NCBI GenBank assembly: GCA_039589315.1
Contig: JBDHHQ010000027.1
Location: forward strand, 32,001-96,000
Length of the DNA stretch: 64,000 bases
Origin: Gemmatimonadota bacterium
GTDB taxonomy: Bacteria; Gemmatimonadota; Gemmatimonadetes; Longimicrobiales; Gaopeijiaceae
Direction: 5' to 3'
Below the pieces are notes generated by a model, which saw only the letters and a program-made list of their open reading frames with translations, did no database searches and was not told the origin of the DNA. Positions within the stretch are counted from its first letter, which is position 1. Each line of letters opens with the position of its first letter. The position numbers were made by a program, and so were the translations under genes. Shown piece by piece: positions 4,974 through 35,948 of this stretch.

Positions 4974-5170
4974 TCACGCCTCCCTGAGGACAATGGCGGG
5001 GTCGATGCGCGTGGCGCGGCGAGCGGGTACATAGGTCGCGACCATGGCGACGCCAACCAGCATCACAGACACGCCACCCAACACGATCGGGCTGGTCGGA
5101 TCCACCTCGAACAGCGCGCTCGTCATCAGTCGCGTCAGGCCGAGGGCGGCCACCAATCCCACCCCGAGGG
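4974..5170 (-). pseudogene. C-terminal fragment of an ADOP/FtsX-type ABC permease
   Basis: LTRLMTSALFEVDPTSP...ATYVPARRATRIDPAIVLRE. Confidence 0.7.
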
Positions 5171-5284
5171 GGAGAGCGTGGCGCAGGCACGTACCGGAGC
5201 TTCGTCCTACCGCCGAGATGCCCGTCTGCTGGGGGGGCACGCCTTTCACTCACATCCCGAGGTGTGCGCAAGCGAACGAGCTCG

Positions 5285-5471
5285 CGCAGCCAGATACAAC
5301 CAGACGCAGCCACACGCAGAAGACCTGGCGGAACTTGAAAACCGGCGTCCGAAGGGACACGTGGGTCCGAGCCGAGCGGCCGATGTGGTGTGCGCGATGC
5401 GGCCGGTCCGCTGGCCCGCGAGACCACTGAGGATCGCCGCAGGCGACCGCAGGTGAATCCCACCCCCTCCG
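5285..5471 (+). repeat. att-like element copy 1: 10-bp repeats + tRNA-Ser(TGA) 3' half with 86-bp T-loop insert (5371-5456)
   Basis: CTTGAAA-ACCGG, variable arm, GTGGG-TCCGA-[insert]-AT-CCCAC-CCCCTCC-G. Confidence 0.85.
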
Positions 5472-5561
5472 TTTAGGGATCACGGCAACGCTGGTTGGCC
5501 AAAGCAACGTCGATGAGTCCGAACCCACGGCGCGATCTGCGGAGCAGATCGCGGAGTTGGT

Positions 5562-5637
5562 GAGCCGAGCGGCCGAAACGGTGGGCCGCGGGGCGGACCG
5601 AAGGCGGCGGTCCGCGAGACGAGCGAGGACGGCGTGA
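5562..5637 (+). mobile_element. Free-standing diverged relative of the T-loop insert (MITE/REP-like)
   Basis: Starts GAGCCGAGCGGCCGA, shares CCGCG..CCGCGAGAC..GAGGA and ends GTGA like the inserts, but lies outside a recognisable tRNA. Confidence 0.55.
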
Positions 5638-5689
5638 AGCTCCCCCGGCTCGCTTACGTCCCGCCGCCCAGGGTGCAGCAGGGGTGCAT

Positions 5690-5800
5690 CTCCCGGGCCG
5701 GATTCCGGCTCAGGTTGGTGGCGCCGGACCCGGCGGCGGCCATGACGTAGATCTCGCCGTTCCCGCGACGGAACGATTCGAACGCGATCCGGCTTCCAAC
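5690..5800 (-). pseudogene. PD40/TolB-repeat gene fragment
   Basis: SRIAFESFRRGNGEIYVMAAAGSGATNLS. Confidence 0.6.
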
Positions 5801-5934
5801 GGGGAGCACTCGGGATGCCCGCCCTGGGGCGTGAAGCAAGGTGGGCAGCCCCAGGGTCGCCAACCCGCAGAGCGAATGCGCCAGGACCGTGGCAAGCGTC
5901 CCGGACCGACTCCACGGTGTGGTCCGGGCCGGAC

Positions 5935-6531
5935 TCACTGGCTCATGACGCAAGCCGGAGCGACCGGCTCCCGGACCCACCGGACCGTGTCCTGGGGGAC
6001 CCATGCCCCGTCCTCCCACACCTTGGCCACGGTCACCAGCGTGTCTCCCCGGCTCAGATCGGTGAGATCGCGGGAGCGCCCGGCGGTGCCATCGGGAAGG
6101 GACGCCGTGAACTCGACCAGGCGCGTGTCTTCACCCGGGGCGGTGAGCGTCCCTTCGGCCACCACCCCGATCCCCGCGAAGACCGTGACCCGGACGCCTC
6201 CGTTCTTCGGATCCGGGTGGAACACGATGTGGCTGAGGGCCTCGCAACGTCCGTCGGCGTAGACCGAAAGGGCGTCCGACGTGACCACGTTGCGTGCCGG
6301 TCCCCAGCGTGAGATCCGCGCCCAGTGGAACGGTTCCTCCTCGGCGCCCGGGCCCCACTCCGGATTATCGCGCCGCCACACGCCGGAACCGTTGACCTCG
6401 TGCTTCAAGAGCGCCGCAACGGGGCTCGCCTGCTGATCTGCATGCTGCGCGCCCACAGGGGCGAGCACGGCCCCCACAAGTGCGGTACTCACCAGTCCCG
6501 CCTTCCACCATCCGCCTCGACTCATCTCCAC
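5935..6531 (-). CDS. Hypothetical secreted protein (copy A)
   Basis: Signal peptide ending PVGA-Q; close paralog at 7244..7839. Confidence 0.7.
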   Translation of the reverse strand: MEMSRGGWWKAGLVSTALVGAVLAPVGAQHADQQASPVAALLKHEVNGSGVWRRDNPEWGPGAEEEPFHWARISRWGPARNVVTSDALSVYADGRCEALSHIVFHPDPKNGGVRVTVFAGIGVVAEGTLTAPGEDTRLVEFTASLPDGTAGRSRDLTDLSRGDTLVTVAKVWEDGAWVPQDTVRWVREPVAPACVMSQ

Positions 6532-6619
6532 CCCACACGTGAAAGGAAAATTTCAGAGGTGAGAAACCATGGCAAGATCGGCCGCCGGAGGCAAGGCAGG
6601 GAGGGGGGCGGATTGCCGG

Positions 6620-6725
6620 ACTTGAACGTCGAAGGGTCCGGATACGGTGGTCTCCCCAGGCCGCGGTCTCGTACCATCACCGAACGCGCCGGTGCTGTAC
6701 CCGTTGAGCCGAAGCATCTCGGCCC
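6620..6725 (-). pseudogene. Short arylsulfatase fragment (second copy at about 7935-8035)
   Basis: AEMLRLNGYSTGAFG followed, across frameshifts, by W.ETAAW-ETTVSGPFD, which resembles an arylsulfatase segment. Confidence 0.55.
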
Positions 6726-6736
6726 AAGGGCCTACC

Positions 6737-7040
6737 CGTGATCGAGTTCCGCGCAATCCTGCCCCTTGCCAACGTTTTGCCAACGCCACCCGCGAACAGA
6801 CGCAGTCAGACGCAAGACGCCGACTCTGGAAGACGGCTTAATCGCCTTTCCCCGCAGCCAGATACAACCAGACGCAACCAGACGCAGAAAACCTGTGGGA
6901 ACTTGAAAACCGGCGGGCTAACGCCCACGTGGGTTCGAGCCGAGCGGCCGAGATGGTGGTCCGCGATGCGGCCGGTCCGCTGGCCCGCGAGACCACTGAG
7001 GATCGCCGCAGGCGACCGCAGGTGAATCCCACCCCCTCCG
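6737..7040 (+). repeat. att-like element copy 2 (complete), T-loop insert 6939-7025
   Basis: TTGCCAACGTTTTGCCAACG, CAGACGCA repeats, CTTGAAA at 6902-6908, tRNA-Ser 3' half. Confidence 0.88.
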
Positions 7041-7243
7041 TTAGAATGGACTGCGCAGTTAAGGCGGCTGGCCTGCCACGGGGCGAACCTCGCCGCCGCC
7101 TCCCCGCGCCTCCCGACGCCGACTGCCGGTCCTGGGCGTGAACCAAGGTGGGCAGCCCCAAGGTCCCCAACCCGCAGAGCGAATGGACCAGGACCGTGGC
7201 AAGCGTCCCGGACCCCACTCTACGGTGTCGGTCCGGGCCGGAC

Positions 7244-7839
7244 TCAATGGCTCATGACGCAAGCCGGAGCGACCGGCTCCCGGACCCAACGGACCGTGTC
7301 CTGGGGGACCCATGCCCCGTGCTCCCACACCTTGGCCACGTCACCAGCGTGTCCCCCTGACTCACATGGGTGAGATCGCGGGAGCGCCGAGTCGTGCCGT
7401 CGGGAAGGGACGCTGTGAACTCGACGAGGCGCGTGTCGTCACCCGGGGCGGTGAGCGTCCCTTCGGCCACGACCCCGATTCCCGCGAACACCGTAACCCG
7501 GACACCTCCGTTCTTCGGATCCAGGTGGAACACGATGTGGCTGAGGGCCTGGCAACGTCCGTCGGCGTAGACCGAAAGGGCGTCCGAGGTAATCACTTTG
7601 CGTGCCGGTCCCCAGCGTGAGATCCGCACCCAATGGGACGGCTCGTCCTCCGCGCCGGGGGTCCACTCCGGGTTATCGCGCCGCCACACGCCGGAACCGC
7701 TGACTTCGTGCTCGAGAAGCGCCGCAACAGGGCTCGCCTGTTGGTCCGCATGCTGCGCGCCCACAGGGGCGAGCGCGGCCCCCACGAGTGCGGCACTCAC
7801 CAGTCCCGCCTTCCACCATCCGCCTCGCCTCATCTCCAC
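7244..7839 (-). pseudogene. Hypothetical secreted protein (copy B), 1-nt deletion near 7340
   Basis: Aligns with 5935..6531; GGCCACGTCACC versus GGCCACGGTCACC in copy A shifts the C-terminus. Confidence 0.7.
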
Positions 7840-8046
7840 CCCGTGTGTGAAAGGAAAATTTCAGACGTGTAAAACCATGGGGAGATCGGGCGCCGGAGGC
7901 AAGGCCGGGACGGGGGCAGATTGCCGGACCTGGACGTTGAAGGGCCCGGATACGCTGGTCTTCCCAGGCCGCGGTCTCGTACCAACCTACCGAACGCGCC
8001 GGTGCTGTACCCGTTGAGCCGAAGCATCTCGGCCCAAGGGCCTACT

Positions 8047-8360
8047 CGTGACCGAGTTCGGCGCCATCCTGTCCTTTGCCAACGTTTCGCCAACGCCACC
8101 CGAGAACAGACGCAACCAGACGCAACCAGACGCAAAGCCCTAGCCGCGACCAGCGCCGAAGACCCCCTGCACCGCAGCCAGATCGAACCACACGCAACCA
8201 GACGCAGAAGACCTGACGGACCTTGAAAGCCGGCGGGCTAACGCTCACGTGGGTTCGAGCCGAGCGGCCGATGTGGTGGTCCGCGATGCGGCCGGTCCGC
8301 TGGCCCGCGAGACCACTGAGGATCGCCGCAGGCGACCGCAGGTGAATCCCACCCCCTCCG
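8047..8360 (+). repeat. att-like element copy 3 (complete), T-loop insert 8259-8345
   Basis: Same architecture; CTTGAAA at 8222-8228. Confidence 0.88.
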
Positions 8361-8419
8361 TTGTGTGGTAAAACCACTTACGCATCTACGGCCACACCCT
8401 CCTCTCGCTCGGTCGCAGC

Positions 8420-9238
8420 GGGTGTTACCCGTTCTGTTACCGGCGAGTCGTCGCTCTCGTCGCCCAGCCCAAAACGGGCAGCCATCCGGTCCAATACTCG
8501 CCACATCCGAGTAGTCCGAGTGGAAGCGGGCGTACTTCATCGTCATCGTGATGTGCTTGTGCCCCAGCTGCTGCTGGAGCAGGTGAAGGGGCAGCCCGGC
8601 CCTCGGGAGCGCCACTGCGGCGGTGTGCCGGGGGTCGTGGATCCAGGAATCGTGGAGCCCCACCAGCCCGCAAGCTCTCTTGTGTTCGGCCTGGACCACG
8701 CGCCGAGGGGTGGTGAAGACGGGTTCCGTTCCGGACGACCCGGTGCCGTCGACATGAGCCTTGACCGCCGCTGCACCCCAGGGCGGCACGAAGACTGACC
8801 GCACGCCCGACTGGGTCTTGGAGCTTCTGACCGAGACGCGATTCTCCGTGGACCCGAACCGATGGTCGCACATCCGGAGTGCCTCGCCTTCCCCAATCCG
8901 CATCCCAGTTCCCACGAGGAGTTGCATGATCGGCCGGAACAGTCGTCGCAGTGCCGCCATGTACGCGGCGAGCTCGTCCGGCTCCAGGTACCGGATCCGG
9001 TCCTTCGACCCGAACCGCTTGATGCGCGGTCGCTCGTCGATCCAGCTCTGTCCGAGGGCGAACGTCGCGAGTACCGATACCGCTCCGAGGTCGTTGTTCA
9101 CCGTCTCCTTCGCGGCACCGGACGCGAGTCGGGCTGCCTTGAACTCCTGGATCCTGTCTGTGGTCAGGACATCGGCGACGGCCGCGTCATCGCCTCGCCC
9201 GGGCGGCCTTCCACTCCGCTCAGCCTGTGCCAGCCGAA
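8420..9238 (-). pseudogene. Tyrosine recombinase/integrase, 5'-truncated and probably frameshifted at the C-terminus
   Basis: TGMRIGE, SKT, IHDPRHT and LGH...TMKY catalytic-type motifs. No plausible native start. It points toward att copy 3. Confidence 0.85.
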
Positions 9239-9301
9239 GAAGCCGCACCACGTCGCGATGTACGTGAGATCGGAGACCCAGAGCCGGTTGGGGCAGACGG
9301 C
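9239..9301 (-). mobile_element. IS3-family transposase remnant
   Basis: Minus strand reads AVCPNRLWVSDLTYIATWCGF, the IS3 OrfB PN..W.SD.TY motif. Confidence 0.7.
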
Positions 9302-15261: not shown

Positions 15262-15521
15262 TCGCCCGGGGAGAGGAGACGCTAATCGGTGCCGTAGCGC
15301 GGCAGGAGGGTCAAACGATCCTCTCCGGCGCCGAAGCGGGAAGAGGTTGGAGCATGGTCATCTCAGACGATCACATGGCTTTGTCCCTGACCATGACGGA
15401 GGACGGAACGGGGTTCGTTGTTTTTGGAGCCTGCATTCCGACCGACCAAACGTCGCCGTCGGGGCTGTCATCCCGAAAGGGTTCATGGCCTGAAGGCGAT
15501 AGCACGACTCTTGACCTATGA
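15258..15521 (+). CDS. Small hypothetical protein, possibly truncated
   Basis: Coupled to the upstream gene; GRGWSMVIS..GFVVFGAC looks protein-like. Confidence 0.35.
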   Translation: MIARGEETLIGAVARQEGQTILSGAEAGRGWSMVISDDHMALSLTMTEDGTGFVVFGACIPTDQTSPSGLSSRKGSWPEGDSTTLDL

Positions 15522-15829
15522 CGGGGGGCGTGCTATCCATTTCCATGGAGATCAAGGGCCGTGGGACCCGGGACATCTATGAAGGCGCCGACACGAAGAC
15601 GGCACGCAAGACGCTGCCTCGGGAGCTATGGAGCAACGCTCGTCGCAAGCTGGACCGGTTGTACCACGCTAAGAGCCTGAACGATCTCCGGTGGCCCGGC
15701 GGGAAGCTGGAGGCCTTGAAAGGAGAACGGAAGGGGCAGCATTCGATCAGGATCAACGACCAATACCGGATCTGTTTCGTGTGGACGCGTGAAGGAGCGA
15801 AGGAGGTCGAAATGACGGACTACCACTAA
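15518..15829 (+). CDS. higB: HigB toxin (RelE/ParE superfamily)
   Basis: ARRKL, LEALKGERKGQHSIRINDQYRICF, DYH terminus. Confidence 0.92.
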   Translation: MTGGVLSISMEIKGRGTRDIYEGADTKTARKTLPRELWSNARRKLDRLYHAKSLNDLRWPGGKLEALKGERKGQHSIRINDQYRICFVWTREGAKEVEMTDYH

Positions 15830-15888
15830 TCGAACGGGACATGGAGGAACACACCTAGGGACCCCAACCTAGGACAAGGGAGCAAGCG

Positions 15889-16209
15889 ATGAAGACGACC
15901 GAAGCCGGTCTACCCCAGCACCGTCCACCCACTCATCCGGGTGAGATGCTACTCGAGGAGTTCTTGAAGCCAGCAGGAATCAGCCAGTCCGAGCTCGCGC
16001 GAGAGATCGGAGTGTCGTTCCAGCGGGTAAACGCGCTATGCAACCAGCGTCGCGAGATGACGCCCGACACGGCGCTTCGTTTGGCGAAGGTGTTCGGCAC
16101 GTCGCCGGAGTTCTGGATGGGCCTACAGGCGAGCTGGGACCTATGGCACGCGATGCGCGCACCGGAAGCGAAGGACCATGAACGAATTAGGCAGCTACGG
16201 CCAGCCTGA
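15889..16209 (+). CDS. higA: HigA antitoxin
   Basis: HPGEMLLEEFL, TPDTALRL, FWMGLQ; toxin-first gene order. Confidence 0.92.
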   Translation: MKTTEAGLPQHRPPTHPGEMLLEEFLKPAGISQSELAREIGVSFQRVNALCNQRREMTPDTALRLAKVFGTSPEFWMGLQASWDLWHAMRAPEAKDHERIRQLRPA

Positions 16210-16254: not shown

Positions 16255-16366
16255 TTGCCAACGTTTTGCCAACGCTCCGTGAGAACAGACGCAACCAGAC
16301 GCAATAAGCCTGAGGGAACTTGAAACCGGCGGGCGCAAGCCCACGTGGGTTCGAGCCGAGCGGCCG
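16255..16366 (+). repeat. att-like element copy 4; internal spacer missing, truncated 12 bp into the T-loop insert
   Basis: TTGCCAACGTTTTGCCAACG..CAGACGCAACCAGACGCAA..CTTGAAACCGGCGGGCGCAAGCCCACGTGGGTTCGAGCCGAGCGGCCG. Confidence 0.85.
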
Positions 16367-21167: not shown

Positions 21168-21245
21168 CGGATCACTCCTTCGAGGGGATGGGCGCTAGGG
21201 CAAGTCAGAGCGGACTCAGGTGGTGTAGCCGATCCGGTGCCCGGA

Positions 21246-21330
21246 AGCCAGATACAACCAAACGCAACCAAACGCAGAAGACCTGTGGAAACTCCAAGAC
21301 CGGCGTCCGAAAGCCGACGGTACCCACCCC
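21246..21330 (+). repeat. att-like element copy 5 (degenerate)
   Basis: AGCCAGATACAACCAAACGCAACCAAACGCAGAAGACCTG..CCGGCGTCCGAAAG..CCCACCCC. Confidence 0.75.
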
Positions 21331-21364
21331 GCGTTGCTCGGCCCGTTGACCAACGACGCAGTCC

Positions 21365-27270: not shown

Positions 27271-27564
27271 ACGTGGAGAGGCTCTCTCGCTCGTGGAACC
27301 CGGGGGCGGGAAACGCGCCGCGACGGGAGGATGAATGAAAGCTATCTCAGGCGTAGCGGCCAGCAAGACCCGTGGGCGTCCACCGAGTACGCGCAGGGGC
27401 GGCTGGAGCCCGGCGTCTGGGAGCTCGTCCATGCGGCCCCCTGTCTTCGAACCTTGAGGCAGCCCTGCTGGCTCAGACGTCGGGTCCGATTACTGGTCGC
27501 GCACACAGAATCGTGAGAGGTTGGGCCGATTCGAGCATCGCGGCAGAATGAAGAACCGCAGAAC

Positions 27565-27642
27565 CGCGACCAGACGCAGAAGACCTGAGGGAACTTGAAA
27601 GCCGGCGTCCGAAAGGTCACGTGGGTTCGAATCCCACCCCCT
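27565..27642 (+). repeat. att-like element copy 6: tRNA-Ser 3' half WITHOUT the T-loop insert
   Basis: CAGACGCAGAAGACCTG..CTTGAAAGCCGGCGTCCGAAAGGTCACGTGGGTTCGAATCCCACCCCCT. Confidence 0.88.
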
Positions 27643-28028
27643 AGGCATGCCATTCAAGACAACGATTCCCGGGGGATGGCCGGGTGATCGTGGACATGGT
27701 CCTCGGTACCCTTGCCAACGGATCTCCCGCCGCTCAGCCATATCCTAGCTTTGGTACGTCATCACCTCGCAGCTCCTCCGCTCCGGGGGTCGTCAACCGT
27801 GGGGGGGTAGGGCCGACATCGTAGCAATGCGGACCTCGTGATCCCGTTGGGTCCTTCGGACGAGGAATGATCCGTGGATCTTCGGACCCGGCGTCGGGTA
27901 GTGTCTCTTCCAGGTTGACAATGCCTCAAGAGAACCTGGACCGTCCCCCACCGACTACGTCGTGTCCTTCCGAGCGACGTTCCGGTGCCCGCCGGGGTCG
28001 GACACATCCACTGAAACGCCCGGATCAC

Positions 28029-35795: not shown

Positions 35796-35948
35796 GATCG
35801 AGCGCCGCGTCATCCCGTCGTCTGCCAACGCCCGCGGCGATCAGACGCAACCAGACGCAACCCCTCGACCCAGCCAAGCCCCGAGAGCCCCCGTCCCCGC
35901 AGCCAGATGCAACCACACGCAACCAGACGCAGAGAACCTGACGGAACT
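35793..35948 (+). repeat. att-like element copy 7: arm only, ends at the core
   Basis: CGTGATCGAG..TGCCAACG..CAGACGCAAC x2..CGCAGCCAGATGCAACCACACGCAACCAGACGCAGAGAACCTGACGGAACT, then non-tRNA sequence. Confidence 0.82.

Follow-up and report, generated by a model that had tools for sequence, protein, structure and literature searches.

A gene-less two-hairpin element at one fixed T-loop position of tRNA-type sequences in Gemmatimonadota, probably a non-autonomous mobile DNA

A stretch of 64 000 nt from a Gemmatimonadota bacterium (NCBI GenBank assembly GCA_039589315.1, contig JBDHHQ010000027.1, positions 32 001 to 96 000 of the forward strand; hereafter the window) carries, inside a 3' half of a tRNA-Ser(TGA) gene, an 87 nt segment that splits the T-loop (6939–7025, plus strand). 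The first-pass annotation offered two readings of this segment, a miniature mobile element or a new kind of tRNA intron. The question raised by the locus is which of these it is, and what could have placed it there.

The insert follows GTTCGA and lies between T-loop positions 58 and 59. Further copies on the plus strand were located at 5371–5456 (86 nt, preceding flank GTCCGA, inside the Ser fragment 5334–5473) and at 8259–8345 (87 nt, inside the Ser fragment 8222–8362), and the three inserts are identical at 83–85 of 87 positions, so the repetition noted earlier is real. The left end alone of the same insert is present in a fourth Ser fragment (16355–16366, plus strand), and the sixth fragment (27594–27642, plus strand) is uninterrupted and represents an unoccupied target, both as first described; comparison also confirmed that fragments sharing the insertion site differ in their variable arms. 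Scored with a sequence-and-structure model that had these copies in its training set, the window copies reached 81–84 bits against a background of at most 17 bits. With the same model a fifth, decayed relative (5556–5656) reached 38 bits; it falls within 5517–5656 (plus strand), where a T-arm fold-back copy (about 5517–5563) is followed by a decayed, divergent member of the family (from 5564). Across this genome, five Ser(TGA) halves are filled and six empty, and other public contigs, possibly from other organisms, diverge from the window exactly at 5370 and 6938 and continue with ATCCC, which is the empty site.

At copy 2, the Ser(TGA) 3' half runs from the anticodon loop to A58 of the T-loop (6902–6938, plus strand) as an att-type fragment whose 5' half is absent, and the remaining T-loop, the T-stem and the acceptor strand follow the insert at 7026–7042 (plus strand). 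Short direct repeats of the CAGACGCAAC type stand in place of the 5' half (6859–6888, plus strand) and may serve as integrase arm sites. The other Ser(TGA) 3' halves in the window likewise start at the anticodon loop after CAGACGCAAC-type repeats, and no complete tRNA gene was found in the window. The halves look like what islands would leave behind after tandem integration at the Ser(TGA) gene, with a crossover in the anticodon loop. Behind the third half lies a decayed tyrosine integrase of the island array (8437–9251, minus strand; Pfam PF00589, E 3e-16), given here as context only.

Several other features of this region were recorded. The array of Ser(TGA) halves (5285–8362, 16255–16366, 21243–21348, 27545–27650 and 35811–35948) has common arm repeats and different variable arms, its junctions recur on at least four other contigs, and it may be one large cassette-like island cluster. 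The intervals 5827–7042 and 7134–8362 are paralogous units of about 1.2–1.3 kb, 89% identical, each encoding a secreted-looking protein of roughly 195 aa without a Pfam match. A toxin–antitoxin pair of the HigB/HigA type (15518–16209) directly precedes the fourth Ser fragment.

The inserts are 95–98% identical, compared with 89% (998/1126) for the surrounding units of copies 2 and 3. Because the inserts are more alike than the units around them, a single insertion followed by local copying or gene conversion is as likely for the three window copies as three insertions; the earlier proposal of repeated insertion at this exact site is supported for the family described below and not necessarily for the window.

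The fold conserved in the family consists of two abutting hairpins with tandem G-A pairs and not of the single long hairpin given by the energy model. Hairpin 1 (6939–6993 in copy 2, plus strand) is built as GCC-GA-GCGG / CCGC-GA-GAC around a variable loop of 37 nt in copy 2; the whole hairpin measures 17–62 nt in the family, and a length as small as 9 nt was also seen. Hairpin 2 (6994–7025, plus strand), the most constant module, reads NNNN-GA-GG, an inner stem with a cGCAg loop, CC-G(C/G)A-N'N'N'N' and then one terminal base (A/C). The long GTGGTC-CGCG hairpin of the first-pass annotation forms part of copy 2's minimum-energy fold (z −1.9 as RNA, −1.5 as DNA), but is not conserved in the family. 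Its TCGCC-GCA-GGCGA hairpin does recur across the family, where it caps a longer hairpin.

Covariation was assessed on 96 aligned of 109 distinct sequences. Paired cells amounted to 98.4% against 91.5% after shuffling, and two-sided changes to 56 against 7.4, a result reached in 0 of 500 shuffles; the counts are inflated by common ancestry, although the changes are still of several independent types (GC, CG and UA at one pair). Controls with slid pairing gave 29–43% pairing. For hairpin 1, three pairs were formed in 78/85, 74/85 and 77/85 metagenome copies that had not been selected on this hairpin, against about 50 in shuffled sets. A covariance model, as had been proposed for the insert, was built and finds further members of the family.

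Another known motif is that of tandem G-A pairs set within CGAG. Among 192 copies, the hairpin-2 loop was cGNAg in 135, cGNNAg in 20 and GNRA in 7, with no UNCG and no reverse-strand cTNCg. Mini-hairpins of the GCGNAGC/GCGNNAGC kind are described as having exceptional stability in DNA form and far less in RNA form (PMC13037366). Because the hairpin-2 loops are of this DNA type, and on one strand only, we infer that the working form is one strand of DNA.

The covariance model returned 20 matches in this genome at E up to 0.01, in T-loop sequences of Ser, Pro, Arg, Cys, Ile2/Met and tmRNA type, and the family overall occupies the same T-loop position in Ser, Pro, Arg, Cys, Val, Asn, Ile2/Met and tmRNA-type sequences. 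Copies elsewhere, on which the first-pass annotation had made mobility depend, are therefore present at many other tRNA-type sequences. When the genome collection was scanned with a pattern, 114 loci were returned, 19 of them without a profile match, and the 80 titles listed were mostly of Gemmatimonadota, many of them Longimicrobiales. A right-end pattern matched 42 of 151 genomes of the host family and, in a reversed control, none; a metagenome scan yielded at least 122 loci. Viral contigs contained the 16-nt left motif at 52 loci, with the element at none of these, and right-end patterns at 0, 10 and 2 loci, which by eye appeared to be chance matches. In total, 192 distinct sequences were collected at 160 loci from several collections, including one single-contig chromosome. 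Head-to-tail tandem copies accounted for 5 of 198. One partial member (G000:C88:8752-8828, E 8e-4) lies between apparent rpoB and rpoC genes, without tRNA context.

Many copies sit in echoes of tRNA 3' ends, which are short, often tandem and often preceded by a T-arm fold-back copy with a GNA loop; the remaining copies are in att fragments or spare genes. Fold-back copies upstream of the element were seen at loci L102, L131, L161, L316 and others as GAACC-GNA-GGTTC or longer GAACCCAC...GTGGGTTC hairpins, and they may form a second module that provides new targets.

Boundaries were defined on 113 complete distinct copies (77–105 nt) from 188 profile hits, 75 being dropped as partial, duplicate or unparsed. 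Among these copies, found by their left end, the right flank was ATC in 98, CTC/CCC (tmRNA type) in 11, GCC in 3 (tandem copies) and GTC in 1. The left flank was GTTCGA in 101 of 113, a count biased by the way the copies were found, whereas the right flank is unbiased; among copies found by their right end, GTTCGA preceded 34 of the 41 that were parsed. Among 39 scored T-loops of this genome's own tRNAs, 22 have GTC and 9 have ATC, and since the right flanks are mostly ATC despite this, the target includes the A after the cut. The ends of the element are not inverted repeats, its last base was A in 51 and C in 53 of 104, and the junctions have no common core. The flanking GA repeat noted at first is present in the window copies but is not a feature of the family: a 2-nt (GA) duplication was absent from 104 and present in 9 of 113 complete members, and there is therefore no target duplication.

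Relatives in antisense orientation to the tRNA were also found, in T-loop copies where they are inserted after GGGATTCG(A/G) and the target resumes with ACCC. They made up 9 of 10 pattern matches among 391 genomes, coming from 6 genomes, and one more was found via the model; they carry the same hairpin 2, and their hosts belong to another family of the class. The sequence TTCGAA is palindromic, and together with the antisense copies this explains the preference for A and places targeting at the DNA level. Antisense copies at L444, L446, L447 and L456 often lie beside short heptamer-like tandem repeats of the CTCACTC/CTTACTC kind.

Occupation of one T-loop position in many tRNA types, with filled and empty versions coexisting, supports the mobile-element reading at family level. 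We consider the element to be probably a non-autonomous mobile DNA that acts as a folded single strand, is aimed at the T-loop via an enzyme supplied in trans and has been multiplied locally. The two abutting hairpins alone, without a gene, would form the folded single-stranded DNA, and the trans-supplied enzyme would cut a T-arm-like hairpin loop at TTCGA^A and join the element there, in fixed orientation to the cut strand and without target duplication, in the strand-transfer manner of IS200/IS605 (HUH) elements. Because TTCGAA is palindromic, either strand of the T-loop would be open to attack. Insertion would kill the tRNA gene, so that surviving copies would be those in dead att fragments, in spare genes or in 3'-end echoes beside an intact gene. 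Local duplication or gene conversion would afterwards multiply neighbouring copies or make them uniform, and the near identity of the three window copies can be explained in this way. The boundaries, the target, the absence of duplication, the conserved pairing, the two orientations, the filled and empty sites and the redundancy of interrupted genes are observed; mobility as an ongoing process and chemistry of the HUH type are what we infer beyond them.

The geometry matches that described for IS605-type elements and PATEs (PMC3119063): the element goes in 3' of a short fixed motif without duplication or a shared core, its hairpins are strand-specific, and some copies stand head to tail. Its behaviour corresponds to that of REPINs (PMC3116915). 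PATEs are described as gene-less derivatives of IS200/IS605 (Dyall-Smith et al. 2011, PMC3119063) that, like the element, lack terminal inverted repeats, have palindromic ends, cause no target duplication, are too short for a transposase and insert 3' of a short target of 4–6 nt, with terminal-only forms of about 50 bp (PMC3119063). Unlike for PATEs, a parent insertion sequence with the ends of the element was not found, and the host family has almost no Y1 transposases. The element moreover starts directly with a hairpin at its very first nucleotide, shows a preference for A immediately 3' of the cut and has the T-loop hairpin as its target. REP and REPIN sequences resemble it in their size of about 80–90 nt, conserved ends and a spacer constrained more in length than in sequence (PMC3116915, PMC3733652), and also in that they show compensatory changes, form tandem clusters, insert into or beside related hairpins and persist vertically (Bertels and Rainey 2011, PMC3116915; Di Nocera et al. 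2013, PMC3733652); REPs of the CGTC type are reported in these papers to lack a dedicated transposase as well (PMC3116915, PMC3733652). Unlike REP/REPIN, the element has no RAYT and no terminal GTAG/CGTC tag, consists of two unlike hairpins placed in tandem where REPINs have an inverted REP doublet, and reaches at most about 20 copies in a genome, almost all of them at T-loop sequences of tRNAs.

Islands that integrate at tRNA genes reportedly include a T-loop class, set out by Williams in 2002. The Ser(TGA) halves of the window are partial-tRNA footprints of the sort left by such islands; the element differs in being a passenger within the footprint, without integrase, arm sites or a replacement 3' end in the window copies. 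One complete and one partial tRNA copy are described as the outcome of island integration (PMC9897764).

No gene carrying the ends of the element was found among the enzyme families tested. Y1 transposases were absent from this genome and five others and present in 6 of 151 genomes of the family, 3 of them among the 42 element-positive ones, and the end motif was absent from 8 Y1 loci. No RAYT gene associated with the element was found in the genomes and neighbour genes checked. Element ends were present at 0 of 19 IS91 and IS110 loci (10 of them IS110), and there was no shared junction dinucleotide. IS91-like enzymes occurred in 21/42 element-positive against 26/109 other genomes, IS110 in 25/42 against 43/109 and integron integrases in 22/42 against 19/109, in a comparison where related genomes are not independent and no tested enzyme is near-universal in the positives. 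Every mobile enzyme tested in this way was enriched, so none is singled out, and the enrichment reflects genomes rich in mobile DNA.

Small GIY-YIG enzymes were tried as movers and rejected: this genome and ten others have only frames of at least 370 aa, strong hits occurred in 36 of 67 sister-family genomes against 1 of 67 of the host family, and the element or a tRNA was present at 0 of 30 such loci. The small GIY-YIG genes of the sister family (L233-L262) are flanked by a different hairpin family, of the GTCATCCTGAG...GGATCT type, which is unrelated to the element.

A scan of this genome's short frames for HUH motifs gave two unconvincing hits. No autonomous version was recognised, in that 126 right-end matches from metagenome and viral loci showed by eye no gene between the arms of hairpin 1; repeat units longer than 330 nt all came from this genome's island array. 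Neighbouring genes were clustered from 2859 frames in six-frame translation and Pfam was run on 109 representatives of 129 gene-like frames at most 400 nt away, which revealed no recurring nuclease or transposase; the matches were two tyrosine integrases, one IS91-like enzyme and one Uma2. The hairpin-1 loop was rejected as a guide, as it matched its own flanks over 5.7 nt and other flanks over 5.7 nt. For guide tetranucleotides of the IS608 type, no fit to the element ends was seen by eye on either strand. No circular intermediate or excision within a population was seen in assembled contigs.

A further proposal, which we consider less likely than not, is that these are gene-less passengers of an undescribed single-stranded-DNA transposition system. 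Its enzyme would lie outside Y1, IS91, IS110, small GIY-YIG and integron integrase, would possibly be a host enzyme, and would recognise the near-universal TTCGA^A T-loop hairpin on either strand and insert a payload of variable size without a scar.

An unlikely explanation is that the element was once mobile and is now a structural repeat kept by the host, inserted long ago at a few tRNA loci, inherited vertically, spread by tandem duplication or conversion and given a role in the tRNA trailer, either in protein binding on DNA or in RNA processing. In line with this, 64 of 118 copies (a set with imprecise right ends) lie at most 400 nt behind an intact tRNA or tmRNA gene, and an upstream copy of the right flank was found for 97 of 198 copies, mostly 25–175 nt away. 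Similarity also tracks the target more than the genome. Identity of the hairpin-1 loop was 0.53 between different targets within one genome and 0.48–0.51 between different genomes, close similarity within a genome was limited to tandem neighbours, and for 35 of 43 copies the nearest neighbour came from a different genome but the same target, a result biased because comparisons of this kind were the more numerous. Copies in one genome being hardly more alike than copies in different genomes points to old insertions and vertical descent and not to a recent burst, and so counts against active spread in the mobile-element reading. The stems and the loop length (two classes, about 31–33 and 36–39 nt) are kept while the loop sequence drifts, and the failure to find a mover fits the same picture. 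Against it, copies in island att fragments and in a probably acquired tRNA array need insertions later than those at the host loci, antisense copies would yield a different RNA, and the distribution is patchy (42/151).

It is quite improbable that the element is an attC-like mini-cassette, taken to a secondary site by a tyrosine recombinase of an integron or island acting on folded single-stranded DNA. The conserved stem base and variable terminal loop resemble attC, which is also an imperfect, strand-specific hairpin whose terminal loop varies. An integron integrase gene lies about 100 nt from one copy (L311), and the enrichment of integron integrases in positive genomes given above agrees with the idea. 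IS91-like and IS110 enzymes are enriched too, however, no integron integrase was seen in 20 of the 42 positive genomes, and the element was absent beside 11 integrase loci. Unlike attC, the element occurs outside cassette arrays, has no RYYYAAC/GTTRRRY boxes at its ends and has junctions without a common core that do not fall at G/TT.

The intron of the first-pass annotation, which would be a short intron of a novel type, excised from the T-loop before the tRNA matures, is highly improbable. Its position is fixed at 58/59, and in silico removal restored a five-pair T-stem in 39 of 113 copies against 16 expected. Archaeal non-canonical and bacterial group I/II tRNA introns also interrupt a tRNA loop at a fixed position, those of bacteria being described as self-splicing and in the anticodon loop region (PMC4390854). 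The element differs from them in lacking a ribozyme core, in occurring antisense and in dead fragments and, compared with archaeal introns, in forming no bulge-helix-bulge that would give the right product (by eye). An Rfam search of 5000–9000 returned nothing of note, with 2 hits at E 0.8–0.9 and no match to an intron or ribozyme core. The DNA-type hairpin-2 loops, and the window copies without a tRNA 5' half, also speak against an intron.

Full tRNA genes carrying the insert had been proposed as the place to look, and interrupted full-length genes do exist, but they are spare or backed by an intact duplicate; this redundancy and the antisense relatives speak against the intron idea. Removal of the insert from 198 copies gave 9 tRNA calls: 2 miscalls, 2 in a spare array at locus L107, and 5 with a damaged acceptor stem, each adjoining an intact gene with the same anticodon. 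At L107, three tRNA genes of the divergent array are interrupted with their stems intact (the third from a separate scan) and thus give complete tRNAs on removal; the same genome has intact Asn(GTT) and Pro(CGG) genes elsewhere, as found in 20 checked regions of 59 tRNA matches. The window's own genome has an interrupted Pro copy, its anticodon altered, directly before the intact Pro(CGG) gene. A point in favour of an intron is that the search of this fragmented, incomplete assembly yielded intact genes for neither Cys(GCA) nor Pro(TGG), so that redundancy is uncertain here for these two. Whether the host's only tRNA-Ser(TGA) gene carries the insert had been put forward as a check; the one full-length Ser(TGA) gene found is uninterrupted.

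Two further observations concern these tRNA genes. The L107 array (L107:1550-3650) comprises roughly 20 divergent tRNA genes, one of them called as Ile(AAT) type, apart from the host's normal set, and was probably acquired; three of them carry the element. The one full-length Ser(TGA) gene found (L014, G000:C1:164791-164868) is without the variable-arm hairpin present in 13 related matches, either through damage from repeated island integration or through an assembly slip.

An assembly artefact can practically be set aside: the assembly has 288 contigs and is often broken at element repeats, but the family comprises 192 distinct sequences at 160 loci from several collections, a single-contig chromosome among them, and the region of copy 1 (5253–5496) is identical letter for letter to a public contig, perhaps not independent of the source sample.

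No description of the element family was found in the openly accessible literature searched. The missing enzyme reduces the value of the finding; with its minimal unit of about 50 nt, its exactly defined target and a hairpin 1 that tolerates 0–45 extra bases, the element is a ready substrate for finding it, and a scar-free, T-loop-specific insertion enzyme would, if real, be of interest for basic transposon biology and as a tool. Among hairpin-type non-autonomous elements, these miniature mobile DNAs, whose target is the loop that is most conserved in tRNA genes, appear not to have been described before, and the family explains the tRNA-end echoes and false tRNA calls in these genomes.
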